Virus record (IMG/VR): IMGVR_UViG_3300032246_002821
Coordinates: 1-64,000 of that record
Length of the DNA: 64,000 nucleotides
Reading direction: 5' to 3' (one strand)
DNA from: a virus
Both the position numbers and the translations under genes were made by a program. Positions 9,865-47,400 of the stretch are shown one piece after another. Numbering within the stretch: the stretch's first letter is position 1; every line of letters begins with the position of its first letter. The notes below the pieces were generated by a model. That model ran no database searches, was not told where the DNA came from, and worked only from the letters and a program-made list of their open reading frames with translations.

Positions 9865-10739
9865 TTTTTACTTCCGCAGTATATCAAACATTCTTCTCTG
9901 ATCTGCCCTGTCTCTATTTCTTGTGCTATGTCTGCATCTGTTATCTGTAAATTTTTAATGAAACAACAGGTTATCAGCTGCCCTTTGAAATTGACGTACA
10001 CACTGGGCAAGTTCAGATGCATACAATTTTCTGGATGTAATGTGTTATTCTTATTGTCTTCTATATTACTGACTTTGCCTTTGTGGCGTCCGAACTTTTC
10101 TTCCAAGGACCATGGTTTAATTTCTATAGGTTCGCCGGTCTTGTGGTGCCGGGGCACATTACGATAGCGAACATTTTTTACCAGATAAAAGTTTTTAAAT
10201 CCCATCTGTTTGCTTATTTTGTAAGCATCTTTGATCTGATGTTCATTGTGAGCAAAGGGCAGGAATTGCCATTCAGCACAACCGCCTGCATCAATGAAGG
10301 CCTGGGCATTGTCTATTATTTTATGGAAGTTAGTATTCTGTCTATAGATGGCGTGTGTGTCTGCCAGCCCATCTATACCAAAAATAATCTTGTGTTGATG
10401 ATCTTTTAATTTCACACCCAATTGGCGCCACCAATTGGTGGTTTTTAAACTGCCATTTGTGTGTATCTGTATCATCAGGTTTTTGCCCAGGACCAGATCT
10501 ATGGTATCATCTATATTTTTACTGGCGATGCAATCTCCAAAATTGCCACAGAAAAACACATTGGTTAAATTGGGTAGTTGATTTAAAACTTCTGTTAGCC
10601 GTGGGATAGGTAAATCGGCTATCTGCAGACCAGGTATCACGCCATAACCGTCATTGTTCCTGGGGCAGGCTATGCAGCTGGCATTGCATCTGCTGGTTAA
10701 TTCTATGTGTAACCATTTGACCGTGGCTAGATTGATCAT
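9861..10739 (-). CDS. Radical SAM / SPASM-twitch protein
   Basis: ELTSRCNASCIACPRN (CxxxCxxC), CGNFGD, HTNG, GIDG; likely ATG 10739 overlaps the cyclase stop (ATGA). Confidence 0.85.
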   Translation of the reverse strand: MINLATVKWLHIELTSRCNASCIACPRNNDGYGVIPGLQIADLPIPRLTEVLNQLPNLTNVFFCGNFGDCIASKNIDDTIDLVLGKNLMIQIHTNGSLKTTNWWRQLGVKLKDHQHKIIFGIDGLADTHAIYRQNTNFHKIIDNAQAFIDAGGCAEWQFLPFAHNEHQIKDAYKISKQMGFKNFYLVKNVRYRNVPRHHKTGEPIEIKPWSLEEKFGRHKGKVSNIEDNKNNTLHPENCMHLNLPSVYVNFKGQLITCCFIKNLQITDADIAQEIETGQIREECLIYCGSKK

Positions 10740-12820
10740 TTTGTGTTTGTGCGGAATACTCCGTCCCAATCTGCGCCAGGTGGATTCTTTATATAATCGG
10801 CACAACGTTCGATCCACATCTCATAATAATGATCCATCTGACCATTAAATGCGCCTATTAGATCCCTACTCATATTCTTAGCGACCGTGAATCTTTGTGC
10901 CTTGTATGCTTTCATCATAGTCACATGATTGATCTTATCCTGATTCCAATTGGGTTTATCAGCACCTTCAGTGTTTAGTACCGTGAAGATGTCCACGCCT
11001 TCTTTCTTGCCCTTAACCGCCAAGCAGTCCAAGGGGAGCGTGAAGAAATCCGTTTTGACATATTCGTTAGTTAGAGGACCAATGACCATAGCCACGTGAT
11101 AAGGCTTAGACTGCCCTTCGAGACGGCTTGCGAGATTAACGCTATCGCCCAAGCAAGTGTAGTCAAAACGCTGCTCACTGCCCATATTACCAACAACGAC
11201 GACCCCGGTATTAATGCCCAGACCCATACCAAAAGGAGGAATACCTTCCGCAGTGACTTCGGCATTGAACGCAGCAAGGCTGTCCAACATTTCCAAGGCC
11301 GTTCTAACGGCGTTCTTCGCGTGTTCTTTATCATCCAGCGGAGCGTTCCAGAATGCCATCTGAGCATCACCGATGTACTTGTCCAGTGTTCCTTCATTGT
11401 CGATGATTTTCCTTGTCATTGCTGTCATGTAGCGGTTCATGATCTTAGTTAATCCTTGGACGTCTTTGCCATAATGCTCACTGATGGTAGTAAAGCCACG
11501 CACGTCAGTGAACATGATGCTTAGTTCTCTGCTGTCTCCTCCCAGCCTGAGCAGGTCTGGATTCTGTTGCAGTTTTTCCACCATCTTGGGACTCAGGTAA
11601 GTGCCAAACTGTTTCTTTATCTGTTGTTTTTGTCTAAATTCTCGAACAAAATTGTTAAAAACACATTGGAAAAATACAAGACTACCAGCGACCAGAAGAT
11701 AGCTGGCATCCAGGAGATAATTTCCATTATCGAATAGGCTAATGTGTACATATATGACCCCTCCTATTAATGTAGCGTACAGAGGTAATGTGGTTTTAAT
11801 ACCAGCACGTGGTACTATCAAGACGAGCAAAATGCTCAATAAAGCCAATGCTGCTAATTCTGCTAGATCTGCCCAGGCTGGGCGACTTATAGTTGTGCCG
11901 CTAATAAGAGTCTGTAATGCCTGCGCTTGCAGATCGTGTGGATAAATTTCGCCCCGGGGAGTGCCTATGATATTACCCAAACCCTCAGCAGTTAGTCCCA
12001 CTATCACTATCTTATCTGATAGATCCAAGGTGCTTTCACGAGTGATCACATCTATGGCTTCCACACGTTCGAATTTGGTGTTCTGGCTCAACCAGATGCG
12101 ACCATTGTTGTCTGTGTTTATGGTGGGAAACTGTGGTATGCGTACCGCTTCTATGCCAGCATCGCCAGTCTTGATCTGATAACTGGGATCTCCTGTGGCC
12201 ACACGGATTATCTCGAGCGGAAAGCTGGGATATAATTCTCCAGCCAGTCTGACTATCATGGGCATACGGCGTACAACACCATCTATTTCTGGTGTTGTGG
12301 CAACTACCCCCACACCGTCCGCGGCTTTGGCCAATTCAGGAATTGGACTGACCCCGCCGCGCCAGCTGAATGTCCAGGGTGCGGGATCTGCGCCTATCTT
12401 GGCCACACCACGGCGCACAGCATCTGGTTGTTGGCTTTTGATACTGACTGCTTGGCTAATCACTACACCTTGATCCAGCACACTTGCCAAGGGATCATCA
12501 CCACCCAATCTATCTGGTTCGGCGAACAGTATGTTCATAGCGATTACGCCGGCATTGGCCTGGCGCAATCTGCCCACCAATTCAGCAAACGCATCGCGAC
12601 GTGGCGGCCACTGGCCCCAACTTTTGAGGGTTTTTTCACCTATGTCTATCAATACAATATCTTTGCTGACCTGTTGTGGCTGACTGGTCATCAGGTAATC
12701 GAAATCTTTCAATCTAAGTGTTTTAACCAGGCTGGGATCTGCATATCGCACAAACAGCAATGCTAAGGCCAAGATGATCACAGCGCCAGTGCCAGTGATC
12801 CAGTTAATGTATTTTTCCAT
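10736..12820 (-). CDS. CHASE2-domain membrane class III adenylate cyclase
   Basis: N-terminal TM, CHASE2 (IDIGEKTLKSWGQWPPRR, EIDGVVRR), three TMs, IMFTDVRGFT, LDKYIGDAQMAFW, GINTG, FDYTCLGDSVNLASRLEG. Confidence 0.95.
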   Translation of the reverse strand: MEKYINWITGTGAVIILALALLFVRYADPSLVKTLRLKDFDYLMTSQPQQVSKDIVLIDIGEKTLKSWGQWPPRRDAFAELVGRLRQANAGVIAMNILFAEPDRLGGDDPLASVLDQGVVISQAVSIKSQQPDAVRRGVAKIGADPAPWTFSWRGGVSPIPELAKAADGVGVVATTPEIDGVVRRMPMIVRLAGELYPSFPLEIIRVATGDPSYQIKTGDAGIEAVRIPQFPTINTDNNGRIWLSQNTKFERVEAIDVITRESTLDLSDKIVIVGLTAEGLGNIIGTPRGEIYPHDLQAQALQTLISGTTISRPAWADLAELAALALLSILLVLIVPRAGIKTTLPLYATLIGGVIYVHISLFDNGNYLLDASYLLVAGSLVFFQCVFNNFVREFRQKQQIKKQFGTYLSPKMVEKLQQNPDLLRLGGDSRELSIMFTDVRGFTTISEHYGKDVQGLTKIMNRYMTAMTRKIIDNEGTLDKYIGDAQMAFWNAPLDDKEHAKNAVRTALEMLDSLAAFNAEVTAEGIPPFGMGLGINTGVVVVGNMGSEQRFDYTCLGDSVNLASRLEGQSKPYHVAMVIGPLTNEYVKTDFFTLPLDCLAVKGKKEGVDIFTVLNTEGADKPNWNQDKINHVTMMKAYKAQRFTVAKNMSRDLIGAFNGQMDHYYEMWIERCADYIKNPPGADWDGVFRTNTK

Positions 12821-12850: not shown

Positions 12851-13375
12851 TCAACGTTTTGTGTAAGTGTATCCTGAGCAGGGGGGTGTCAAACACTGGA
12901 TACTCATGCTGCTGGCATCTGGTGTTAATGCATTATCCTGCAGAGCATTAGCTGTGATGCCTGAGCCGCTCAGATTAAACACAAAGCTCTTGGGTGCTGA
13001 ACCAGCTTGTTGTATCACAGCTGAGTTGTTGTTATTGCTGGTGGTCTTATCCAGATTGATGGCAGCAGTGTGGTTGCCTGATCCGGTCTGGAATATGGTC
13101 AGTATATTGTTATTGTTATTGGGAGCGATACTAGTGATAAAATTAGCTCCTGATTGTCCAGCTGGAGGTGTGCCAATGAATGCCATATGGGCACCAGTGC
13201 CTTCCTGTATGATGGCTAACTGATTGTTGTTGCCCTGATTGAGCACTATGGCTGTCTTGCTATCACTATCTTTCTGGTTGACGGTTATATTATTAAGATC
13301 TCCCACTTGGTCGATATAAACAGTATCAGCAGCATAAACTGGGGTTATAATCGCCAGTAACCATAATCGTTTCAT
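12851..13375 (-). CDS. Curlin-repeat secreted protein (CsgB-like)
   Basis: Signal peptide (VYA/ADT) and repeats IDQVGDLNNITVNQ, LNQGNNNQLAIIQEG, IFQTGSGNHTAAI. Confidence 0.75.
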   Translation of the reverse strand: MKRLWLLAIITPVYAADTVYIDQVGDLNNITVNQKDSDSKTAIVLNQGNNNQLAIIQEGTGAHMAFIGTPPAGQSGANFITSIAPNNNNNILTIFQTGSGNHTAAINLDKTTSNNNNSAVIQQAGSAPKSFVFNLSGSGITANALQDNALTPDASSMSIQCLTPPCSGYTYTKR

Positions 13376-14493
13376 TTGCTCTGCCTTATGGTTATGGTGC
13401 TGCCACCTGGTTTATTGACCTGTTGTAGTATGGGCAAACCGTCCTGATAAATGTTTATCTGTGCGCTGCTGTCCTTGTCCACTATGACTTGAGCGAAGTG
13501 ACTGGGGGCTGCGCGATACAGGTTAAGGCTGTAGTCTTCCACATAGTATTTGAGACCTTGTACTTTGTTGGGTTTATATCTGGGCAACATGGGATCGTCC
13601 TGTTCAGCCAGCGCATTATCCAATAATCCAGCGTTCATGAGATCGATAATGTTTTCCAGGAATGAAGAATCCAGATAGTTTTGTGCCAGTTTGCCAGTTG
13701 CTTCCGCTAGCAGATCCACATTGAGTGCATCGTATCTCAATAAATCTTTATCCAGCTCATTGCGATCTAATATGTTTTTGCCAGTCTCATCGTGGGTGGC
13801 GTGTTTGGGTTTGGTCAATATCAACATATTGCTTATCTGTGCATCTGTCAGTTGCAATATGGTGGGCTTGGCAGGATTGCCTTCCCTGCTAACTGTCTGA
13901 GTGCTCTGGAACATCTTGTCCAACCACACCGTGCCCATATCTGTTGTGACACTTATTTTACCCACTTTGCAATCTTTTTCCAGGCTTTTGTAACCCACTG
14001 GGCAACTGGGCAACAGAACAATTAGGCTACGGCCCAGCTCATCCACTGTCATACTGAAGTCCGTGCCACGCACACCCACAGTAGCAGTGGGTGTTTCTAT
14101 ACTCACAGACTGTGGATTAGCTTTGGCTATTTGGCCTGATGCGAATTTGGCTGTGCCCAGGGCCATCTTGAGTCCCACTTTGCCAGCATCACCTTTGGCT
14201 GGATCATACACAAAGCTGTCTATCACAAGTTTACTCTGTTCGGTTATTTTCACAGTGCTGTTGTCTTGAAAGGTGATGCTGACTTTGCTGTTGGCTGTGA
14301 CCACAGCATCATTCTGCTCCACGCCTGAATCTTTTGCGCTGGGAATCACTTGTTTGTCGCGTTGAATTTCAGTAGGACCAGTCTGTTCTGTTACAGTACC
14401 GGCCGCCGACCAAACATCAGTTGCCTGAACGCACAGTAATGCTGTTGTTACTGCCAACGCTCTTGATATTGACTGTTGAATCCACTGTGCCAC
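13372..14493 (-). CDS. FecR-domain exported protein
   Basis: GTG start with AGGAG SD; FQDNSTVKITEQSKLVID and ETPTATVGVRGTDF FecR motifs. Confidence 0.85.
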   Translation of the reverse strand: MAQWIQQSISRALAVTTALLCVQATDVWSAAGTVTEQTGPTEIQRDKQVIPSAKDSGVEQNDAVVTANSKVSITFQDNSTVKITEQSKLVIDSFVYDPAKGDAGKVGLKMALGTAKFASGQIAKANPQSVSIETPTATVGVRGTDFSMTVDELGRSLIVLLPSCPVGYKSLEKDCKVGKISVTTDMGTVWLDKMFQSTQTVSREGNPAKPTILQLTDAQISNMLILTKPKHATHDETGKNILDRNELDKDLLRYDALNVDLLAEATGKLAQNYLDSSFLENIIDLMNAGLLDNALAEQDDPMLPRYKPNKVQGLKYYVEDYSLNLYRAAPSHFAQVIVDKDSSAQINIYQDGLPILQQVNKPGGSTITIRQSK

Positions 14494-21737: not shown

Positions 21738-22775
21738 TTATGCGTTATTTTTTAATTGCTGATATGCATAAAGCGCAAAGCTGGCCAAGTTCTTGCCCTT
21801 GCTTTCGCACTGTATGTCGAATTTGTCGGCGAAAGTAAGAGCATAGTCATTGACAGCACTATTCCACATCATATCGCTGTGTGCTCTGAGTGCTGCTTTC
21901 TTCAGTCCAGATTCCAGCAGATCAGGCATCACCGGCCGCACAGACTCCAGAACCACTCTAGATTCTCGGAGTAGGTCTTCGCGGCTGACGCTGTAATGTA
22001 GTACAGGCCGTACACCGCGCCAGCTGTCAAGAATCCTAGCAACACGTACATCATCAGGCGCGAGATAATCTGCATCGCGAATCCAATGATGATGCAAGTC
22101 CAGTACAGTAGGTACAACGTCACTGAGACTGAGACAATCGTCCAGACCATATTTGTACTCCTCGTTCTCCACTGTGATGCAGTTGCGAGCTTCTGGGCTC
22201 AGCCTATTTAAGGCTGCACGAATGCCGTCAGGACCACGTCGGCCGCTGATGTGTACATTACACTTGAAGTCCTGGAATGTCTTACCGTAGCCCATCCACC
22301 TGATGATGTCAGTGTGGTATTCGAATTCTTCTATGCTACGGTTAACAATTTCGTCATTGTCACTCGCAAGCACCACAAACTGACCAGGGTGCATACTAAG
22401 CCTAACGTCAAGAGCTTTAGCAGTGGCACCCACTGTACTGAATGCCTTCTCACAATAATTACGTACATCCGGACGCTGCCAGAAATAACTGTAAGTAGGT
22501 TCAGTGTAGACAGGCAAAAGATTGCTGCTAAGACGCACCATTCTAAGACCGGCATCTTGTTCTCCCACTTTCTTGATCAATTTGTGTACAGCTTCTGTGT
22601 TGTACACCATGATGTCCCACAGCTTCTGTTCAGCAACATCACGTGGCTGACGGTTAAGCCAGGCCACAGTTGTGCCTAGGTCTGTGTATTGCTTGGCGTC
22701 ATCCTTGGGTTTAAGCCCATTGACCTGATCCGGATGGTCAAGCCATTTGCAGCAAAACCCTATACGATTTGTCAT
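21738..22775 (-). CDS. uvsE: UV damage endonuclease (UVDE)
   Basis: RIGFCCK, MVRLSS, RLSMHPGQF, ITVENEE, LDLHHHW, HYSVSR and LRAHSD motifs. Confidence 0.92.
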   Translation of the reverse strand: MTNRIGFCCKWLDHPDQVNGLKPKDDAKQYTDLGTTVAWLNRQPRDVAEQKLWDIMVYNTEAVHKLIKKVGEQDAGLRMVRLSSNLLPVYTEPTYSYFWQRPDVRNYCEKAFSTVGATAKALDVRLSMHPGQFVVLASDNDEIVNRSIEEFEYHTDIIRWMGYGKTFQDFKCNVHISGRRGPDGIRAALNRLSPEARNCITVENEEYKYGLDDCLSLSDVVPTVLDLHHHWIRDADYLAPDDVRVARILDSWRGVRPVLHYSVSREDLLRESRVVLESVRPVMPDLLESGLKKAALRAHSDMMWNSAVNDYALTFADKFDIQCESKGKNLASFALYAYQQLKNNA

Positions 22776-23317: not shown

Positions 23318-23971
23318 TCAACCGAAATATTGCGGATGGATCATTTGGATAGAGAGCATTTCTGTACCATTCAAATAGGTTTTGATGTGGGGTATGATAT
23401 TTTCCGCTAGGATCCTATGACCATTGGGAGTGAAATGATTGGATCTGCTGTCCTGCATATTTTTACCCCAATCGGGCCAGTCTGCTTTACTGCAACTTGA
23501 CAGTCCCATATCGCTTACCAACCACAATCCATAAGTTTTGTTCACATAAGTGCTATTGAATGCAGGCATATTGATCAATTTGATCTGTCTTTCCCTGCAC
23601 TTGTTTTGTATGTCATCTATCAATAATTTGTACATATTGAAACTGAAAATTTCATCATACAAATGTTCATAATACATCTTGGCCGCTGATATGATTTCTG
23701 ATCTAACAGTATTGTCGAAAGTGAAATTTTCTATATGTGGATTTATAGCAACTGTGGGATGATACAGTCTGCTATGTTCCGTATGAACTATCAGTACCAC
23801 ATCAGGTTCTCTATTCAAAACACGATGGAAGTTTTCCCATATTTTGTACTGGCTCTGTCCGCTGAAACCCTGATGGCTTATAAGATGCAATCCACATTCT
23901 GTTACCATGGTTTCCAGATATGTGTTTTTATAGTCCCGTACGAAGCTGTCCCCCATTATTGCTATGAACAT
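23318..23971 (-). CDS. SGNH-hydrolase-like protein
   Basis: IAIMGDSF block I, G(F)SG, C-terminal SNHF...GH. Confidence 0.65.
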   Translation of the reverse strand: MFIAIMGDSFVRDYKNTYLETMVTECGLHLISHQGFSGQSQYKIWENFHRVLNREPDVVLIVHTEHSRLYHPTVAINPHIENFTFDNTVRSEIISAAKMYYEHLYDEIFSFNMYKLLIDDIQNKCRERQIKLINMPAFNSTYVNKTYGLWLVSDMGLSSCSKADWPDWGKNMQDSRSNHFTPNGHRILAENIIPHIKTYLNGTEMLSIQMIHPQYFG

Positions 23972-25428
23972 CAGAAAACCCTTATGTCGTGTAATTCACT
24001 GAACCGCCTGGCATCAGACATATCATTAACTAGTGGTTCGCCTCGTATATTTAGACTTGTGTTTAGCAACATAGCACAACCAGTACGTGCTTGCCAGGCT
24101 TCCAGTATAGCCCGTATGATACCTGGATTGTTATGATGCACAGTTTGCACTCTGCTGGTGCCATCCACGTGACATATAGCCGGATATGTGTCAGGCTCCA
24201 GGCATTTTACCGTATATTGCATGAAATCATATCTGTCATCCGTGACATCGAAATGGAACCTGGCGTGTTCGGCCAGCACCACTGGTGCGAATGGTCTGAA
24301 CTTCTGTCTTTGTTTGATGGTATTGACACGATCTTTCACATCTGGCCCACGTGGGTCGGCCAGTATACTGCGATTTCCCAGAGCACGGGGGCCGAACTCA
24401 GCCCTGCCATTTGCTATGCCTATCACTTGCCCTGATTCCAGAGCATCCACAACTGTTGTGATATCAACATTACCACAGATATCATGTCCCAGATAGACGT
24501 GATCTAATCTTTGCTGACGCCTGGTCTTGTATAAGACCGCGCCCATACTGAGCCCAGCATCGCCTGGATTGGCTGGCACATACATCCGTTTATACACGCC
24601 TGATTTTAGGATTTCACTATTAGCTACGCAATTAAGAGCACACCCCCCACTGATGATCAGGTTGTCACTGGGCAGCAGCTTACGTGCATAGGATACCAGA
24701 CCTTGCATATATTCCTGGAATATCTGTTGAGCACTGGCGGCTATGTCTTCCGCTCGCCAGCCCCGGTGCTCTAGCAAGGATTTAATGCCACGATGGATGT
24801 TATATCGCATAGGGCAGCGAGGCGGTGTCCAATCGCTGAACAACATCTGTTTCAACTCCACCGCGTGTACAGGCTCGCCATAGGCAGCCATACCCATAGT
24901 GATGTATTCTTCTTCGTTGGGTTTGAGTCCAATGGCTTGTGTTATGGCGGTGTAAAATAATCCCATGCTATCTGGATAACTCTGATGCCACTTGCAGTAT
25001 AACTCAGCGCCACATCCGTACCAAATGCTGGTAGTTTTCCATTCTCCTATGGCATCTACCACGATTATTGCAGCGTTAGTGTAGCCGCTGGTATAATAAC
25101 CCAACGCCGCGTGAGCACCGTGATGCGGCACTGTTTCAAATTTCAAATCGTCCAGACCGAATTGCCTTAGATGTGCGACAGGATCCTGAAACACTGGCCG
25201 TTCGCCGCTGTATAGTCTGCGTAGTGCTTTAGTCCAGGGATTCTCGAACCACAATATTTTATCAGGTTTGCCATATCTGGCCATATCTGCCAGCATATGT
25301 TCGTTGAGCAAATTGTCACTTTTTTTCCTGCTGTATCTTTCGCTATGAGCAGCAAATAAAACTTCTTGTTCAGTGGCCAAACACACACTTGCGTCGTGAT
25401 TTAACGCATTTATACCCAGGTATTTCAT
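23971..25428 (-). CDS. Carbamoyltransferase (NodU/CmcH family)
   Basis: NHDASVC, ERYSRKK, HHGAHAALG, GGCALNC, EFGPRALGNRSILADPR, FRPFAP, LNTSLN. Confidence 0.93.
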   Translation of the reverse strand: MKYLGINALNHDASVCLATEQEVLFAAHSERYSRKKSDNLLNEHMLADMARYGKPDKILWFENPWTKALRRLYSGERPVFQDPVAHLRQFGLDDLKFETVPHHGAHAALGYYTSGYTNAAIIVVDAIGEWKTTSIWYGCGAELYCKWHQSYPDSMGLFYTAITQAIGLKPNEEEYITMGMAAYGEPVHAVELKQMLFSDWTPPRCPMRYNIHRGIKSLLEHRGWRAEDIAASAQQIFQEYMQGLVSYARKLLPSDNLIISGGCALNCVANSEILKSGVYKRMYVPANPGDAGLSMGAVLYKTRRQQRLDHVYLGHDICGNVDITTVVDALESGQVIGIANGRAEFGPRALGNRSILADPRGPDVKDRVNTIKQRQKFRPFAPVVLAEHARFHFDVTDDRYDFMQYTVKCLEPDTYPAICHVDGTSRVQTVHHNNPGIIRAILEAWQARTGCAMLLNTSLNIRGEPLVNDMSDARRFSELHDIRVF

Positions 25429-32607: not shown

Positions 32608-32850
32608 TTAAAGTGCAATACCTGCCGTACGCATTTCTTTTAATTTTTTCTGCCAACGCTTCTGGGCACGTGCTTTGGCCTTCTTGCGCTTCTGGCTGGG
32701 TGTCTCGAAACGCTCGCGTTCGCGCAACGTCTGGAAGATACCATCGGATTGGATCTGTTTCTTCAATTTACGCAGGGCTTTGTTGACGTCGTTGTTGTGG
32801 ACTTCCACGAACAGGCCCTTCTGTTTTAGATCGGTTACTTCAAAGCTCAT
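32608..32850 (-). CDS. rpsU: Ribosomal protein bS21
   Basis: VEVHNNDVNKALRKLKK...RERFETPSQKRKKAKARAQKRW; likely start MSFEV at 32850. Confidence 0.9.
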   Translation of the reverse strand: MSFEVTDLKQKGLFVEVHNNDVNKALRKLKKQIQSDGIFQTLRERERFETPSQKRKKAKARAQKRWQKKLKEMRTAGIAL

Positions 32851-33238
32851 TTTTTCCCTCTTGGTGCTTCTGGTAATTAGCATATCTTTCGGCCAGCCAA
32901 GAATAAAGATCGAATGTCTGTCTGTGCGTGGCTTTGCCTATGGCATTGTCTCCCCAGGCCCACACATTATCTTGTGCCAGCAGATAGCCTTTCAGTATTT
33001 CTTTATTGCCCTGAAAGCGGCAATTTATCAAGCAGGCAGTGGCGTGTTTGGCTGCATTGATGCACCAGACATCGTCGGTCTCTTTGCTGCCATACAAGAA
33101 AACGGTCACGGGTTCAGGCATGGTTTTCACTATCTGACTGAAACGTTCCACATCCGACCATTCGCAATCCACTAGTAATATCTTGAAACGATTGCTCAGG
33201 TCCATATCAGGTACGGTTACTATCCTGCTTTCATCCAT
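32840..33238 (-). CDS. Hypothetical protein
   Basis: 132-aa coupled ORF. Confidence 0.55.
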   Translation of the reverse strand: MDESRIVTVPDMDLSNRFKILLVDCEWSDVERFSQIVKTMPEPVTVFLYGSKETDDVWCINAAKHATACLINCRFQGNKEILKGYLLAQDNVWAWGDNAIGKATHRQTFDLYSWLAERYANYQKHQEGKNEL

Positions 33239-36048: not shown

Positions 36049-37611
36049 CTCAATACAAATAATGTCAGATCTTCCTCGCTGTCAAAAGCTATTATACCCT
36101 GCCCTATCCAGCTGACCCGCATACCCTGCTCTACCGACTGATCAAGGATCAGTCTCATCTCGTCAAGGAGGGCGTTGCGTTCAGGTTCCATAGCCTGCGT
36201 GAAGCTCTTGGGCGCAGGGTTACGACAGCGTATGCCGCGCAACCACAGTGGATTGCCGTCCACAGTCGCCCATCGTATACGACGAGTCACAACCACCTCA
36301 TTACAAACAGCGTGGCATCTTCCTTGTGCTTGAACATCAGTATAGGCATAGGGCTCATTGTTGCGTGATCTAATATATAGGCCCATTGTATCTGCATTAG
36401 TCGCAGCCATTGGGTCACATCTTCATCGCCGATATATAATAACTCTGAGAAAGTCTCTGGACAACGACGTCTCTGAGGCAACAGATGTCGTATGTCCACC
36501 GGTGTCCAACCGTCCCAATCATTCATGACCATCTCAGTATGAATCTCACGGCATCTTCTTCTGTGGCGAATACGATGTCGTTTCTAACGATGCGAGCATT
36601 GTATTCTTTATTCAATATCTCATTGCCATACAGATACTGATCGTCAGACTCCACGAAGTTTTTCCACACTTGTGCATAGTCGCGGGCATACGTTACCCCA
36701 TCTGGATTGATACCCCATTCTATGAAACAGATACGAACAGTCATGAATACCTCATTACGAATGACATATACGACATTTCATCGAAGAAGTCAAGATATAT
36801 CCTGTCACGGGGATATTCAGCTGAGTTATCAAATCCAAAGCGTCTGACACAGCCCAATTCTTTTTGCATACGCCAGCTGAGGAATATGCTGATGCCATGT
36901 TCAGCAATCAAGTCCTGCCTTATGGGTTGCCATTCCTGTTCTGTCATCTCTACCATGAGGAATTTGAACTTCAAATTTGCCACCTCAATGAATAAGCAGT
37001 CGCGGCTTCCTTGGACAACATAACAAACATTTTTACAACATATTCTTCGCAATTGATGTCCAGATAATTTTTTAGGAATATCTCATATTCCCAACCCTGA
37101 TCCTCTATCCAGCTGATGCGTTCCAGATTTTCTATCTTGTTCCATTCCTCGCGAAGATCTGTGAGAGGAGTGTCAGACTCACGTTTGATGATGAAACTAT
37201 CCAGCTGCAAAGCAGCATGAGTCTCAGGCACAGGTCCTGTCCTGTCCTGAGCATTCAGCAGATTTTGGAAATTGTTAGCCATCACCCACCTGCAAACGCC
37301 ATAGTGATCAGTGCAAGTTCTAGGTCGTCTCTTACATATATACGCATTTTGCCGTATTCGCTCTCCCAGCACCAGACGTTGGGCAAGTTTCTCCTCAGAT
37401 GTAATTCACAAGCTGGCCCCCATTGCTGCCAACACCAGACACGCATATCACTGAATAGCTCTGCTTTGGTGTTATTTGCTTGGGCAGTGAACTTGATGAA
37501 AGGCTCTACCATGAATTTGAAATTTTCGCAGCCGTTGTACCTGCGGTCTAGTTTAGTAACCTTGTAATTACCTATCTGCATACCATACTTCCTCGATGCT
37601 AAATCCACCAT
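36039..37611 (-). CDS. Array of six small paralog-like genes ending F-x-x-E-E/D-x-x-F-x-L/M-R-W
   Basis: ORFs 36039-36410, 36287-36532, 36523-36744, 36741-37052, 36971-37372 and 37282-37611 (several starts over-extended); C-termini listed in findings. Confidence 0.65.
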
Positions 37612-37960
37612 AATAGCCGTTGTGCTCGTTGTGGTTTACCAGTGTGATGAAACCTGAGTCAGTCTGGATTTCCAAGAACTGTGTGTCGTGTACATCATAA
37701 CCATTTTCGTCGCTCACATCAGGACCGTCCTTGACTTCGTAGCACATGAATCTGCTACCAATCAGCTGTCGCACATCATCGTCTGTGCTCATGTAACGAT
37801 TTTCGCAGCAGCACTGACCGTTGTCACGCAATGTCAACTTGCCAAAGTCAAACTTCAAGGTGATGCTGTCTTCATCTACCTCTGCATCACGGATGATCAT
37901 ACCTTTAAGCTGCATTTTCCAAAACCTGTCTGATATGTTTGCAGTCCCGGCGGAAGCCAT
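37568..37960 (-). CDS. Conserved hypothetical phage protein
   Basis: DNGQCCCENRY...HNEHNGYYGGF. Confidence 0.65.
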   Translation of the reverse strand: MASAGTANISDRFWKMQLKGMIIRDAEVDEDSITLKFDFGKLTLRDNGQCCCENRYMSTDDDVRQLIGSRFMCYEVKDGPDVSDENGYDVHDTQFLEIQTDSGFITLVNHNEHNGYYGGFSIEEVWYADR

Positions 37961-38270
37961 AACCTGGGCAAGTGCAGGAGCGTTGTTTGCCGTCTATGGT
38001 CACACTGTAGGTGCTGCCTTTGCTGCCTGTGACGATGTGTACACGCTGGCTCACGGCAATGGGTGGCACGGTGTAATCTTCACTGCACTCTTCGATCCAT
38101 TCCGCTGGAATGATGTGCAGGCCCTTGTGGTCCACAATGCACACTGCACCAGGCTCAGCCCACTTGGGAGCAGGCACACGCTCTCCGCGGTACTCATGAA
38201 ACTCACGCACCACCCCACGAGCATATAGATGACGCTTGGGCCACTTGGGATCACGAACCTTGACGTACAT
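37905..38270 (-). CDS. SWIM zinc-finger protein
   Basis: VTGSKGSTYSV...SCTCPGYGFRRDCKHI; AAGGAG SD before ATG 38270. Confidence 0.8.
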   Translation of the reverse strand: MYVKVRDPKWPKRHLYARGVVREFHEYRGERVPAPKWAEPGAVCIVDHKGLHIIPAEWIEECSEDYTVPPIAVSQRVHIVTGSKGSTYSVTIDGKQRSCTCPGYGFRRDCKHIRQVLENAA

Positions 38271-38391
38271 CTGTATGCTCCTTGTTAACTCGTTTGCGGT
38301 TGTAGCTGCCAGCACCCTTGCGAGCAACGACGATGCGCTGGCGATACTTGCGATCCGCCAATGCTTTTGCCTGTATGCTACGCTGTTTCAT
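38251..38391 (-). CDS. arfA: ArfA-like alternative ribosome-rescue factor (46 aa)
   Basis: Not in the ORF track. GGAG SD; MKQRSIQAKALADRKYRQRIVVARKGAGSYNRKRVNKEHTDVRQGS* matches the ArfA signature AL-x-D-x-x-F/Y-RQR...KG-x-GSY-x-RK. Confidence 0.72.
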   Translation of the reverse strand: MKQRSIQAKALADRKYRQRIVVARKGAGSYNRKRVNKEHTDVRQGS

Positions 38392-38417
38392 CACTCGCTC
38401 CTGGGCTCTATATATTC

Positions 38418-38445
38418 AATATAGCACACAAAGACCATCTGTCAA
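38418..38445 (-). promoter_or_regulatory. Sigma70-type early promoter (arfA-like gene)
   Basis: TTGACA-N16-TATATT with TGC before the -10. Confidence 0.75.
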
Positions 38446-38460
38446 CCACAAAAAGAAAGA

Positions 38461-38486
38461 TCTCCCGCAGATCAATCTGCGGGAGA
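38461..38486. terminator. Intrinsic terminator
   Basis: TCTCCCGCAGA-TCAA-TCTGCGGGAGA, followed on the minus strand by a T-rich run. Confidence 0.75.
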
Positions 38487-38505
38487 CCACAATCATCAAG
38501 CTGTA

Positions 38506-38837: not shown

Positions 38838-38865
38838 ATATTAACACGGTCTAAGACCGTGTCAA
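38838..38865 (-). promoter_or_regulatory. Sigma70-type early promoter with a palindromic spacer
   Basis: TTGACA-N16-TAATAT; ACACGGTC-TAA-GACCGTGT at 38844-38862. Confidence 0.75.
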
Positions 38866-38874
38866 CACTTTTTT

Positions 38875-39252
38875 TCAGTCCAAACGGCTGGCGGCATAAG
38901 CCTTGAAGCCGTATTTCTTCAGCACTGCGGCAGCAGCCACAGCACCAGCTTCCTTGCAGTCGATGCTCTGTCCGGGCCACTTGGCTGGGTCCCAGATCTG
39001 ATAAGCAGGACCACCAAAGCCAGGCCTAAAACCCATCTCCTTGAGCTGGGCCCGTTCAGCCTTGCCCAATTTGGTATTGCCCTTGTTTGCTGGGTAAACT
39101 TCCACCCAGGCAAAGCCACATGCACCACCATCACGACCTTCATAACGCTCGTCTGCCCGTTGTTTGGCAGCGTATTGAGCGGCAATGGTCATTTCAGTAA
39201 CAACAGCTTGCGTATTCAACATGTGCATCTCCATCATCAACTTATAACTCAA
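38875..39252 (-). CDS. Conserved early hypothetical protein
   Basis: GGACGFAWVEV...QSIDCKEAGAVAAAAVLKKYGFKAYAASRLD; promoter at 39251-39278. Confidence 0.7.
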   Translation of the reverse strand: MSYKLMMEMHMLNTQAVVTEMTIAAQYAAKQRADERYEGRDGGACGFAWVEVYPANKGNTKLGKAERAQLKEMGFRPGFGGPAYQIWDPAKWPGQSIDCKEAGAVAAAAVLKKYGFKAYAASRLD

Positions 39253-39274
39253 TATAACACGGCTTTATCAGGTG

Positions 39275-39409
39275 TCAACCATTAATTTGCTGAACGGTGC
39301 ATTTATTTCCAGTAACTTCTTCGTAGAACATCACTTCTTCCATCAGGTTACCCAGATCAGCGTTGCGGCAAATTTCACGACCATTGTGGTTGTATGCTAC
39401 CCAAATCAT
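39275..39409 (-). CDS. Small early hypothetical protein (44 aa)
   Basis: AAGGAG SD; MIWVAYNHNGREICRNADL...; promoter TTGACA-N16-TATATT at 39440-39467. Confidence 0.6.
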   Translation of the reverse strand: MIWVAYNHNGREICRNADLGNLMEEVMFYEEVTGNKCTVQQING

Positions 39410-39547
39410 AGTGTGCTCCTTTGCTTCAACTTATACCCCAATATAGCACGTGATCTGATGGTGTCAACCACTATTTTCCAGAAAAATTCTCCAATGATTT
39501 CAAGGCAGAAAAATCCCCTGTATCAGTTAAAATACAGGGGAAATTTA

Positions 39548-44029: not shown

Positions 44030-44410
44030 CTGTCTGATGTAGCCCTACCTGGTAGACCAGGAATTGTTTTAACTGCGTATCAGCCGCTTACGCAAGCTGG
44101 TTGTACTGGTATTTAGTGGCCCGTTCTGTTGCCGGGTGGAGCCATACCCCTGGTGGTTACGCTGCTAGAGCGAACTCCTGAGTAGCAAAGTTATCGTTTG
44201 CATTTGTCATTTTGCTTTCTGTCTCAGCTGGTCTTTATCACACCTGTCGATCCTATTTCGCCCCCATCAAAGATACACTGACTCGAAACAGTGCCGGCCA
44301 GTCACCTATCAGTTAGTGGTGTGCTATCCAGTGTATCTATGGTGGAGGCGCCGGAGTACTGCCCTCCGGGTCCAGTGAGTTTATTCCACTTCGCCTCAAC
44401 GACATAAGCA
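44030..44410 (-). ncRNA. ssrA: Circularly permuted (two-piece) tmRNA, tag ANDNFATQEFALAA
   Basis: Acceptor piece ends CCGGAG-GGCAGTA-CTCCGG-CGCCTCC-ACCA at 44340; intervening hairpin 44266-44339; coding piece starts GGGGGCGAAATAGGATCGAC at 44265 (G3-U70 pair); tag at 44201-44157. Outer ends approximate. Confidence 0.93.
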
Positions 44411-44440
44411 TATTATTTATAGCATTAAATGTGTAGTATG

Positions 44441-47400
44441 TCAACTATTTCTGGGCGATACATCAAATTGACCGTCGGGCCCTGAACCGCCCCAACCAGT
44501 TGTTTCGTTTCTGTCCATTCCAGTTTTCATTGTTTTGAGTATGGCCTGGAATTGGTTACGTATCTTGTCCAGCAAAGGAGCCAACACCTGGCTTCCCAAC
44601 AATGTGGTGCCCAATGCATCCACATTGGATGGTGTCACTTGGCTGAGCATCTCCAACATACCATATACCATCTGATCTGTCAGGAAGGGATTATCATATT
44701 TGGTTGTACCGATGCTGCCGTATAGGATTTTATTACACAGGCTCAGCATCGTGCCCACGAACATCTCATTATTGGTCAGTAATAACCCTTTTTCGTCTAT
44801 GGTGGCAAACAGGTTCTGGCTACGGTTCAGTCCCACCACATAGCACTTGTTACCGATGACCAGTGTATTACGGCCTACAACTTGGCTCAACACATCCATA
44901 CCTATGGTTTTCTTTACCTGCTCGCTGGTGTTGGCCCATTGTATGTCGTAATATGCTTCGTCGGCCTGTGCAGGCAACATATGAGCAGGATCGTTTCCGC
45001 TGTTGATCAATGCTGTATTTCTCAACTGTATATAGATGTCATCTGGATTTTGTGGTGCAGGAGGATCCAACAACACATCAGGCACTATGGGCATTTCGCC
45101 ATTGTAAACAGTCTGGGCGAAACCATAGGGATCATTGTAATATTTGCTCCTGGGCAGATCGAATCGACCTGTGTCTATACCCAGCTCTGTCAATAATTCT
45201 TTGTTTTTACCCTGACGCATAGCTGCTTTTATGCTGTCTCCCCAGATGTCATCGGTGGCAACTCGTTCGAGGAAATGTCCCATTTCTCCATAACCCATAT
45301 TCATTCCGTGATAGGGCAGCTGGCTTGCGAACACGAATGCGTTGGTGGGGTTCTGATCCAGTCCATCTGTGTTGAAATGATCTATACCGAAAGTCTTGCT
45401 CATATGGTTTTCTTTAAGCAACTGAGCACAACTGGCCAAATGCGCTGCTTCGCTGGCAGCAAGCAGTTTTTTCAATGTGGGATCAGTCGTGTTTTTTATC
45501 ACAGTCAGCTGTGCTTCCACATAAGGGATGAAATCTGTAAGACAAGCGTCCAGACTGGTATAAACTATACCATCATAAGGGGTGGTGCCGAAATCGTGGA
45601 TCACTGGCAGACCAGTTGCACCCAGCGGCACTGCATTGCCATCAGCATCTGTGACATTGCTCAGATATTGAGTGCTGGTGCTGGTATCTCCAGTGATGGG
45701 ATTGGTTATAGTTTTGGTTGGCAGTGTACCTGTCAAACCTCCTGTCAAACTGTTGCTGACATCCGCTGCGTTCACCACTTTTGTCAGTTTATTAGTGGGA
45801 GCACCAGCCCAGGGCACACTCACTTTAGGTGTGATAACGATAGTGTCCACATTAGTGCTGCCAGCTGGAGGTGTGCCTCCACCTGATACACTTGTTCCGT
45901 CAGGAGCAGGTACATTATAGAGACCGTTTATTATGTTGTGCATGATATTCAATCTGCGTTGAAGTTCCTGCCCATCAGTGGTGGCCATCACCGCATCATT
46001 GGCCGCGATGATATGTGGCAGAGTGTCGTTATGCACATAACCAGCACAAGTACCCATGAAATCTGCCATAGTTATTTCGCCTATGGTACCGCCACCGAAA
46101 CCATATGTGCTCTGTATCTCGTCTACGGCAGGCTGATAGTATGGCGTGCTCATCTGGCTCACGTGGTTCAGATCCAGGCCAGGATCCACTTTGCTCAACA
46201 CCATACCCACCTGTTGGAAATTTTCAGCTCTGGTGATGCCCAGGCTCATGAAGTGTTCGCCCAGTTCTTTGAAGTTATTGTGCGGACTGCTCTGGCTCAT
46301 ATTGGGCATCATGGTCTTGTAATCTGTCAGCTGTCCCAGATGTGTAACAGGTGTGCTCACATTGAAATGGCTGCTGACACTAGCCACTGCTGTGGGATCG
46401 CTGATCTGTGTCAGCACATTCTGCACACTCTTGTCGTACCTGGGATCATCCACGCCTGCCAGAGGCACACCAGCTGTGACCAATTTGGTAGTGAGACCTG
46501 TCTTGGTTCCCAGACCAGCATTGAGTATCTGATTGGCCACGTTGCCAGGTTGCATAAGCCTGGTGGGATTACTGGTGCTGAATGTGCCCATATTCAGCAT
46601 ATCAGTGCTGGCGCCAGCAAGATTCCTGGTTAGACTGGTCACTCCATAACTTAGCACATCATTCATATTGCGGAAATTGGCCCCCAACGCACCAGGACCT
46701 TGGGTACCGAATTTTGCCGCACTGGCTTCACTAGCTGCGCCCACCATCTGATTGGCTATGCCGCTATAAGCGTTGGATACGCCCAGATTGTTCATCATTG
46801 CATTGAGGCCGCCGCCCACTGCACCCCCCACCATATTATTGGCCACGTTCTTGATCATACCCTGGAGTCCACCATTGGCCGCGAACTGCTGCATCACGTT
46901 GGGCAGATTCATGGGATTTTGCATTATTGCATTGAGGGGCGCCATCAGTTGTCCCAGTGCTCCATTGATAGCACCATTTGCGATGCCAGCCAGCTGTGGT
47001 GGCAACACTCCTGTGAGGCTGGGTAGTATGCTACCGCCCAGTTGGCTTATCTGTTGCATTATGGGGCCAGTGATGCTGCTCATAGCACTGCCCAATGCTC
47101 CCTGAGCGAATCCACCCAGGCCCTGCCCGCTCATTATGCCGCTGATGCCGCCCTGCAAGGCACCCTTCATCATATCGCCAGCCACACCTGTGATCCCAGC
47201 TGCTCCCAGCGCATTGGTCAACTGGCTGGTCAGTCCATTGGTTGCCATTCCCAGTGCGTTCTGTAATCCAGCTGCGCTCATGAGACTGGCGGGATTCATC
47301 CCGCTGCTGGCACAGCCAGCACCTCCCGCGCCTGGTGCGCCGGGCATACCAGGAGGACCTCCTGCTGCACCAGCAGGTGGTTTGGCATTGGGATCTATGT

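Follow-up and report, generated by a model that had tools for sequence, protein, structure and literature searches.

A short ArfA-family gene with a conserved stop codon in a large phage, and its relatives in other phages and SAR11 bacteria

Introduction

ArfA is the textbook back-up factor of ribosome rescue, kept off by being produced from a message that lacks a stop codon. An RNase III hairpin or a terminator ahead of the stop creates this message, the hydrophobic tail of the protein is poorly conserved, and tmRNA represses the product. We studied a virus-borne gene that resembles the active part of ArfA and yet ends in a stop codon of its own. Is this a genuine ArfA-family gene, and if so, has it escaped the tmRNA control usual for ArfA? 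The gene lies in a stretch of 64,000 nucleotides (hereafter, the window) taken from an IMG/VR virus record of 182,953 bp. CheckV puts the completeness of this record at 54%, which by division implies a genome of roughly 340 kb.

Phage genes annotated as ArfA are already known from two published phages (PMC8953757, PMC12753301). Our literature search found no paper on a distinct stop-terminated ArfA design, on its spread in large phages or on its presence in SAR11 chromosomes.

Results

The encoded peptide belongs to the ArfA family

The gene was first proposed from the bare sequence, and the coordinates and peptide given by that original prediction proved exact; the strand, which it had left out, is minus:

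38251..38391, minus strand: ArfA-like coding sequence, 46 codons plus TGA (translation, Pfam ArfA, phrog_20887, dN/dS)

The frame opens with an ATG at 38391, its last sense codon extends to 38254 and the TGA occupies 38253-38251. Translation yields a peptide of 46 residues, MKQRS...RQGS, identical to the one first quoted. An alternative in-frame GTG start is present one codon further 5' (38394); the ATG, not the GTG, is the start kept among relatives.

Taken singly, the sequence gives a match to the Pfam ArfA family that we regard as marginal: PF03889, with a curated gathering cut-off of 25.5 bits, scored 27.2 bits against the protein (E 2.7e-6, residues 11-34) and 24.9 bits, below that cut-off, in a six-frame search of the contig. 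The peptide also matched phrog_20887, a PHROG of unknown function (E 1.1e-4, residues 1-38 on profile positions 1-35 of 46). Despite the marginal single-sequence score the family link is firm at the level of sequence, because 47 of 49 members of the short family individually matched PF03889 at E <= 0.001 (best E 5.5e-12) and because the top matches of a profile built from close relatives were six E. coli ArfA sequences (ten PDB entries, E 0.018-0.037). All of these matches fell in a single register, in which phage residue n corresponds to E. coli ArfA residue n+9. When the phage and SAR11 genes were aligned by MAFFT with the ArfA proteins of Providencia and Suttonella, the alignment was gap-free from residue 1 through KGxGSYxRK, about 32 residues. 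The motif reads KGAGSYNRKR here. In the close group K25, G26, S29, Y30 and R32 never vary; across 49 sequences this still holds for G26 and R32, and K25, G28, S29 and Y30 each reach at least 90% conservation. The original prediction had staked itself on conservation of KGxGSYxRK in homologous phage frames, and on this point it holds.

The frame carries the signals and selection of a gene

Upstream of the ATG we found the following elements:

38398..38403, minus strand: Shine-Dalgarno sequence CAGGAG, 6 nt 5' of the ATG, invariant in aligned relatives
38418..38445, minus strand: sigma-70-type promoter, TTGACA, 16 nt, TG-extended TATATT, 11 of 12 consensus positions
38449..38488, minus strand: intrinsic terminator of the upstream gene, 13-bp stem (38488-38459) followed by a T run

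The terminator places the ArfA-like gene in its own transcription unit. Both promoter hexamers are kept in 8 of 9 distinct lineages, with a variable spacer and a fixed distance of 26 nt to the ATG, and the CAGGAG and ATG are invariant wherever the promoter is conserved. The pattern TTGAC-N16-18-TATAWT occurs exactly four times in the window (0.25 expected), always on the minus strand, and three of the four occurrences lie at 38.4-39.5 kb. Near-identical sigma-70-type promoters with 16-nt spacers form a run on the minus strand (38418-38445, 38838-38865, 39251-39278 and 39440-39467); each precedes one small gene, the ArfA-like gene being the last of the run.

Twelve close metagenome relatives share 74-100% identity with the peptide and measure 43-47 residues, except for two over-extended calls. 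Over codons 1-40, outside the overlap with the next gene, dN/dS against three relatives was 0.06, 0.08 and 0.23, and in a second viral group the median over 53 pairs was 0.20. Downstream, two genes follow in fixed order:

37905..38270, minus strand: SWIM zinc-finger gene, 121 residues (Pfam SWIM, E 2.7e-5)
37568..37960, minus strand: DUF7448 gene, third of the conserved operon (Pfam DUF7448, E 3.8e-12)

The SWIM ATG lies 17 nt 5' of the ArfA-like stop, creating a 20-nt overlap, and this overlap and order recur in all related contigs. In every one of these the ArfA-like gene is followed by SWIM (118-121 residues) and DUF7448, while the upstream gene varies; the two downstream genes (37568-38270) always lie 3' of the ArfA-like gene, with overlapping starts and stops. 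As judged from its sequence and that of its relatives, the ArfA-like frame is a genuine gene.

The peptide spans most of the active core and differs at its N-terminus

At the +9 offset, the 43-46 phage residues reach position 52-55 of E. coli ArfA. The E. coli protein, of 72 residues, is active without the last 17-18; shortened to 40 residues it is inactive, and the part that is ordered on the ribosome measures 46-48 residues (PMC8012679). The phage peptide thus covers all of the ribosome-ordered part save the first nine residues, and its length, above 40 residues, suffices for the part needed for E. coli ArfA activity. The hydrophobic tail is absent. That the gene encodes only the active core, as originally proposed, is borne out by the gap-free alignment and by this end point. 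The accompanying idea that a regulatory tail had been lost fared less well: the tail is indeed missing, but being short and stop-terminated is the mark of an entire clade, in phages and SAR11 alike, and a tailed ancestor is not required.

The N-terminus is 9 residues shorter than that of E. coli ArfA. In the gap-free alignment, where a slip of one residue is possible, E. coli Ala18 falls opposite phage Lys9, and the nearly invariant Ala8 of the clade opposite Glu17. In E. coli, the A18T variant of ArfA still binds and recruits RF2 but activation is blocked (PMC8012679). The residue at the Ala18 position and the shorter N-terminus therefore suggest that activation of RF2 by the phage peptide may be different or absent. 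An N-terminal motif, R-N/S-x-x-A-K-x-L, is conserved throughout the clade.

The stop codon is conserved and no canonical non-stop signal precedes it

In close relatives the frame is closed by TGA at codon 47 or, in one lineage, by TAA at codon 44, so the real stop codon that had been read from the single sequence is a kept feature of the gene. The TAA arose by a C-to-T change that is silent in the SWIM frame, which overlaps here, and it implies that the last three residues are dispensable. We accordingly rejected functional conservation of the C-terminal QGS; its conservation follows from the overlap with the SWIM frame.

Local folding revealed one structure around the stop:

38219..38280, minus strand: hairpin of 16 bp with a 27-nt loop, -24 kcal/mol MFE, z -3.4, none of 200 shuffles as stable

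Its 5' arm comprises ArfA-like codons 38-43 together with the Shine-Dalgarno sequence and AUG of SWIM, its 3' arm lies within the SWIM gene, and the ArfA-like TGA sits in the loop. No U tract follows the stem, and an intrinsic terminator inside the ArfA-like frame was rejected for that reason. Of the nine related sequences compared, four have a strong stem: that of the window (-24 kcal/mol) and three more from 2 lineages (-27.7 to -31 kcal/mol). In the other five the stem is decayed by two uncompensated mismatches (z -0.1 to -1.7); no compensatory change was seen across the nine. Folding of the whole 232-nt transcript was not unusual (z -1.1), and only the local hairpin stands out. The simplest reading is that the hairpin masks the SWIM start site until the ArfA-like frame is translated.

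For comparison, the stretch that begins at the GSY codons was folded in other genes. In the arfA genes of Providencia and Suttonella a perfectly paired GC-rich hairpin with U's behind it lies well ahead of the stop. In a SAR11 gene, gp63 of Pelagibacter phage HTVC034P and a Cellvibrionaceae gene, 33-42 nt separate the GSY glycine codon from the stop, and no hairpin precedes the stop. The second viral group showed no unusual structure (z -2.0 to +1.1), and there the ATG of the next gene overlaps the stop (ATGCGTAA).

The hallmarks of non-stop control of ArfA were thus not found in the phage gene: its stop is conserved and overlaps the next gene, and both tail and U tract are absent, with the qualification that in the window's lineage a long-loop hairpin spans the stop. 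A real overlapping stop, no hydrophobic tail and no terminator or hairpin of the canonical arfA kind before the stop together predict a factor that should accumulate regardless of trans-translation, and synthesis independent of the state of tmRNA is, on these features, likely.

Short stop-terminated relatives are widespread in phages and SAR11

An exhaustive profile search retrieved 88 clusters at E <= 0.001, mostly of 35-56 residues; the median number of residues beyond the KGxGSY motif is 12. The members examined as DNA have real stop codons and no pre-stop hairpin or terminator of the canonical arfA kind. Relatives are encoded in 27 IMG/VR contigs, and the IMG pipeline names some of these short proteins ArfA. 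Three more distant members sit in phage contigs of 353 kb, 45 kb and 56 kb. As for phage contexts, the 353-kb contig has sheath and T4 gp13-like genes, another member lies beside RNA ligase and RtcB, and a third occurs with NAMPT and a gp6-like gene. In the RNA ligase/RtcB case (L037:4657-8123) the short ArfA-like gene stands directly 3' of the two, a tRNA or RNA repair pair, a neighbourhood that may point to a common task against defences that cut RNA.

The second viral group consists of IMG/VR contigs (L009-L034) with a GC content of 36-41%. In these genes a -10-like TATATT ends about 6 nt 5' of the ATG and no Shine-Dalgarno sequence is present, which suggests that the ArfA-like message is leaderless in this group; the gene whose ATG overlaps the stop encodes a signal-peptide protein.

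Among cultured phages, neither megablast with 5 kb around the ArfA-like gene nor tblastn with the peptide at E <= 0.01 gave a match. At E <= 10, tblastn returned four weak matches, three of them in phages of Alphaproteobacteria: g10 of Citromicrobium phage RXM, an ORF of Roseobacter phage CRP-212 and HTVC034P gp63 (41 residues). The CRP-212 frame (MZ892988.1, L040:1501-1626) is an unannotated 41-codon ORF within the 3' end of gp38, in another frame.

In bacteria, a search of species-representative genomes with a 12-sequence alignment confirmed at least 48 loci, in a biased sample; among those listed, 43 are from Pelagibacteraceae/Pelagibacterales, one from an Acetobacteraceae MAG and four from Gammaproteobacteria. 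The SAR11 frames (loci among L042-L088) are 37-52 residues long, stop-terminated and 43-57% identical to the phage peptide. One of them (L052:3001-3117) lies in an ordinary stretch of chromosome and starts at a TTG that overlaps the stop of the response-regulator-like gene upstream.

In 401 evenly sampled alphaproteobacterial genomes, PF03889 matched in 10, above the cut-off in 8. Among ten alphaproteobacterial genomes that carry an ArfA-like gene (partly incomplete, several related), nine have no ArfB-sized RF-1-domain gene; the nine contain only RF1- and RF2-sized RF-1-domain frames, one genome having a single such frame. In a published survey, 2,022 of 2,376 Alphaproteobacteria had arfB and not one had arfA (PMC11633108). 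The ArfB-poor distribution is circumstantial and suggestive support for a rescue function of the ArfA-like genes.

Companion genes point to an alphaproteobacterial host

Two features of the window are informative about the host:

44115..44448, minus strand: two-piece (permuted) tmRNA of the alpha type (Rfam alpha_tmRNA 135.5 bits, tmRNA_permuted 95.2 bits)
32608..32883, minus strand: ribosomal protein bS21 gene (PF01165, 62.3 bits)

The tmRNA is complete and encodes the tag ANDNFATQEFALAA at 44201-44157; the motif TATAAATA lies just upstream, at 44414-44421. It was found by Rfam and missed by ARAGORN. No SmpB or release-factor domain was detected in the 183-kb contig. Matches to the phage bS21 were present in 190 of the 201 alphaproteobacterial genomes sampled (best 50.6 bits), against 110 of 201 Gammaproteobacteria (best 43.8 bits), tallies that take in the unpublished genomes G043, G442 and G544. 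BLAST of the tmRNA against the 401 alphaproteobacterial genomes recovered only a conserved core of 35-60 nt, in 70 of them. Among cultured phages, the large subunit of ribonucleotide reductase (RNR) is closest to gammaproteobacterial phages (57-62% identity) and carries little host information, the phage collection being dominated by such phages.

An alphaproteobacterial host is likely, given the alpha-type tmRNA and the affinity of bS21. The alphaproteobacterial signal noticed originally is confirmed by Rfam as far as the tmRNA is concerned. The mismatch then perceived between such a host and an ArfA gene stands only in part: the host is supported, but Alphaproteobacteria are no strangers to ArfA-like genes, with PF03889 matches in 10 of the 401 genomes and in many Pelagibacteraceae, and relatives in phages of Citromicrobium, Roseobacter and Pelagibacter.

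Comparison with known rescue factors

The phage gene shares its Pfam family with ArfA of E. coli and other beta- and gammaproteobacteria (YhdL, PF03889; PDB 5MGP, 5MDV, 5U4I, 5H5U, 7OJ0), and the two proteins have in common the KGxGSYxRK channel motif and an F/Y-R-Q-R-V/I segment. Unlike ArfA (YhdL), the phage gene has a conserved real stop, no hydrophobic C-terminal extension, and neither a terminator nor a short-loop hairpin before its stop; its product is 9 residues shorter N-terminally, with Lys at the Ala18 position. It is moreover phage-borne, driven by a predicted early promoter and probably coupled in translation to a downstream operon.

In published design, the level at which we compared them, it resembles ArfT of Francisella tularensis, with which it shares a very short length, a basic tail and a normal stop. 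ArfT is a working rescue factor of 40 residues that is stop-terminated, is not controlled by truncation or tmRNA tagging and works with RF1 or RF2; its similarity to ArfA is low (KKGGSTNKK instead of KGKGSY) and an independent origin has been proposed (PMC6299226). Unlike ArfT, the phage protein is a clear member of the ArfA family.

ArfA-family genes in phages of Alphaproteobacteria have been published as annotations. One is g10 of Citromicrobium phage vB_CbaS-RXM (PMC8953757); the other is gp30 of pelagiphage HTVC027P, which is transcribed early and late in infection (PMC12753301). RXM g10 is 53% identical to the phage ArfA-like protein over 32 residues. It encodes 60 residues including a tail (L039:1492-1674), and a strong GC-rich hairpin followed by U's lies about 50 nt before its stop. 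This is the canonical non-stop design, and by its sequence RXM g10 is the canonical regulated type, carried by a phage. The short SAR11 genes resemble the phage gene in being stop-terminated and in their motifs, and L052, the sole SAR11 gene folded, has no pre-stop hairpin; unlike the phage gene they are cellular, reside in low-GC genomes and, in L052, are coupled to the upstream response-regulator-like gene.

Discussion

The ArfA-like frame is a real gene of the ArfA family, its design is stop-terminated and this design is widespread. Ribosome binding, recruitment of a release factor, independence from tmRNA and a benefit to the phage are what we infer from these sequences. The explanation that we favour, with confidence only a little better than even, is that the gene encodes a stop-terminated rescue factor reduced to the ArfA core, made whatever the state of trans-translation and of benefit to the phage. 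The gene would be transcribed early, heading a small operon under a host-type promoter of its own, and the product would be an ArfA-family member of 43-46 residues containing the active core only. By homology, its target would be ribosomes that have stalled on reaching the 3' end of a truncated message, whose vacant mRNA entry channel the basic C-terminal half (KGAGSYNRKR...) would occupy. The central YRQRIVV segment and the N-terminus would bring in RF2 of the host, or a different class I release factor, and activate it. The recruited factor would then free the peptide without a stop codon. The likely benefit would be to free ribosomes from messages cut during infection by host mRNA decay or by defence nucleases, with the ArfA-like factor acting alongside the phage's own tmRNA and bS21.

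Three rival readings were weighed. Control of the arfA kind could persist if RNase III cut the hairpin at 38219-38280 and removed the stop, leaving a non-stop message whose peptide would be tagged by host or phage tmRNA unless trans-translation were saturated. The stability of the hairpin is significant, with z -3.4 here and about -5 in the three relatives that keep it, its stem of 16-18 bp is about as long as that of the Providencia arfA hairpin, and the stem begins 8 codons after the GSY motif, near the canonical position. We nevertheless hold this to be unlikely. In the five relatives where mismatches have decayed the stem, the gene and its stop are kept; the 27-nt loop and missing U tract are unlike canonical arfA hairpins; and, the 5' arm carrying the SWIM Shine-Dalgarno sequence and AUG, cleavage would sever the conserved downstream operon. 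Masking of the SWIM start for translational coupling accounts for the stem equally well. Both arms are moreover protein-coding, the 5' arm in two frames, so that sequence conservation alone is no sign of structure.

A stop-terminated peptide might also bind the mRNA channel and rescue nothing, serving instead as a modulator or inhibitor that competes with SmpB-tmRNA or mRNA, redirects release factors or aids a takeover of translation. Such a role would fit a gene that, like takeover genes, appears to be early and whose best conserved part is the channel-binding motif; it would also fit the divergent N-terminal activating region (9 residues shorter, Lys at Ala18), given that the A18T variant of ArfA, though able to bind and to recruit RF2, leaves it inactive (PMC8012679). 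We give this reading rather little weight, since the short form is found as well in an ordinary SAR11 chromosomal context, its occurrence in mostly ArfB-less alphaproteobacterial genomes fits a working cellular rescue factor, and the N-terminal R-N/S-x-x-A-K-x-L is conserved across the clade. That the similarity to ArfA is convergent is more improbable still. Under this alternative a small basic peptide would have another role, for example in binding nucleic acids, or would be a leader peptide that opens the SWIM start, as the very short length, the richness in Lys and Arg, the marginal single-sequence Pfam score and the conserved coupling layout with SWIM might suggest. Against it stand purifying selection at the amino-acid level along the whole peptide, a gap-free sequence continuum to canonical ArfA, the PF03889 matches of 47 of the 49 clade members, and the occurrence of the gene in SAR11 and in other phages where no SWIM gene adjoins it.

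If the stop-terminated rescue factor is what the gene encodes, a large natural clade of ArfA exists without non-stop control, in phages and in the most abundant marine bacteria, and the ArfA core can be constitutive. Phages would then be seen to invest directly in ribosome rescue, with an ArfA-like factor, tmRNA and bS21 in one genome, and the view of Alphaproteobacteria as devoid of ArfA (0 of 2,376 genomes surveyed, PMC11633108) would need correction. These claims are tempered by the earlier ArfA annotations in two published phages. A broader proposal, which we put forward as tentative and on balance doubtful, is that large alphaproteobacterial phages carry a two-tier rescue kit and, jointly, that stop-terminated ArfA is the back-up factor in SAR11 and in Alphaproteobacteria that lack ArfB. 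An early, unregulated ArfA-type factor would provide untagged release and the phage tmRNA would act later; such a kit would keep ribosomes available when host or defence nucleases shred mRNA or tRNA.

The window also contains cargo that is unusual for a phage, all of it on the minus strand: a CHASE2-adenylate/guanylate cyclase (10736-12820), a FecR-domain protein (13372-14493), a carbamoyltransferase (23971-25428) and a UvdE UV endonuclease (21738-22775), with sugar-modifying enzymes nearby.
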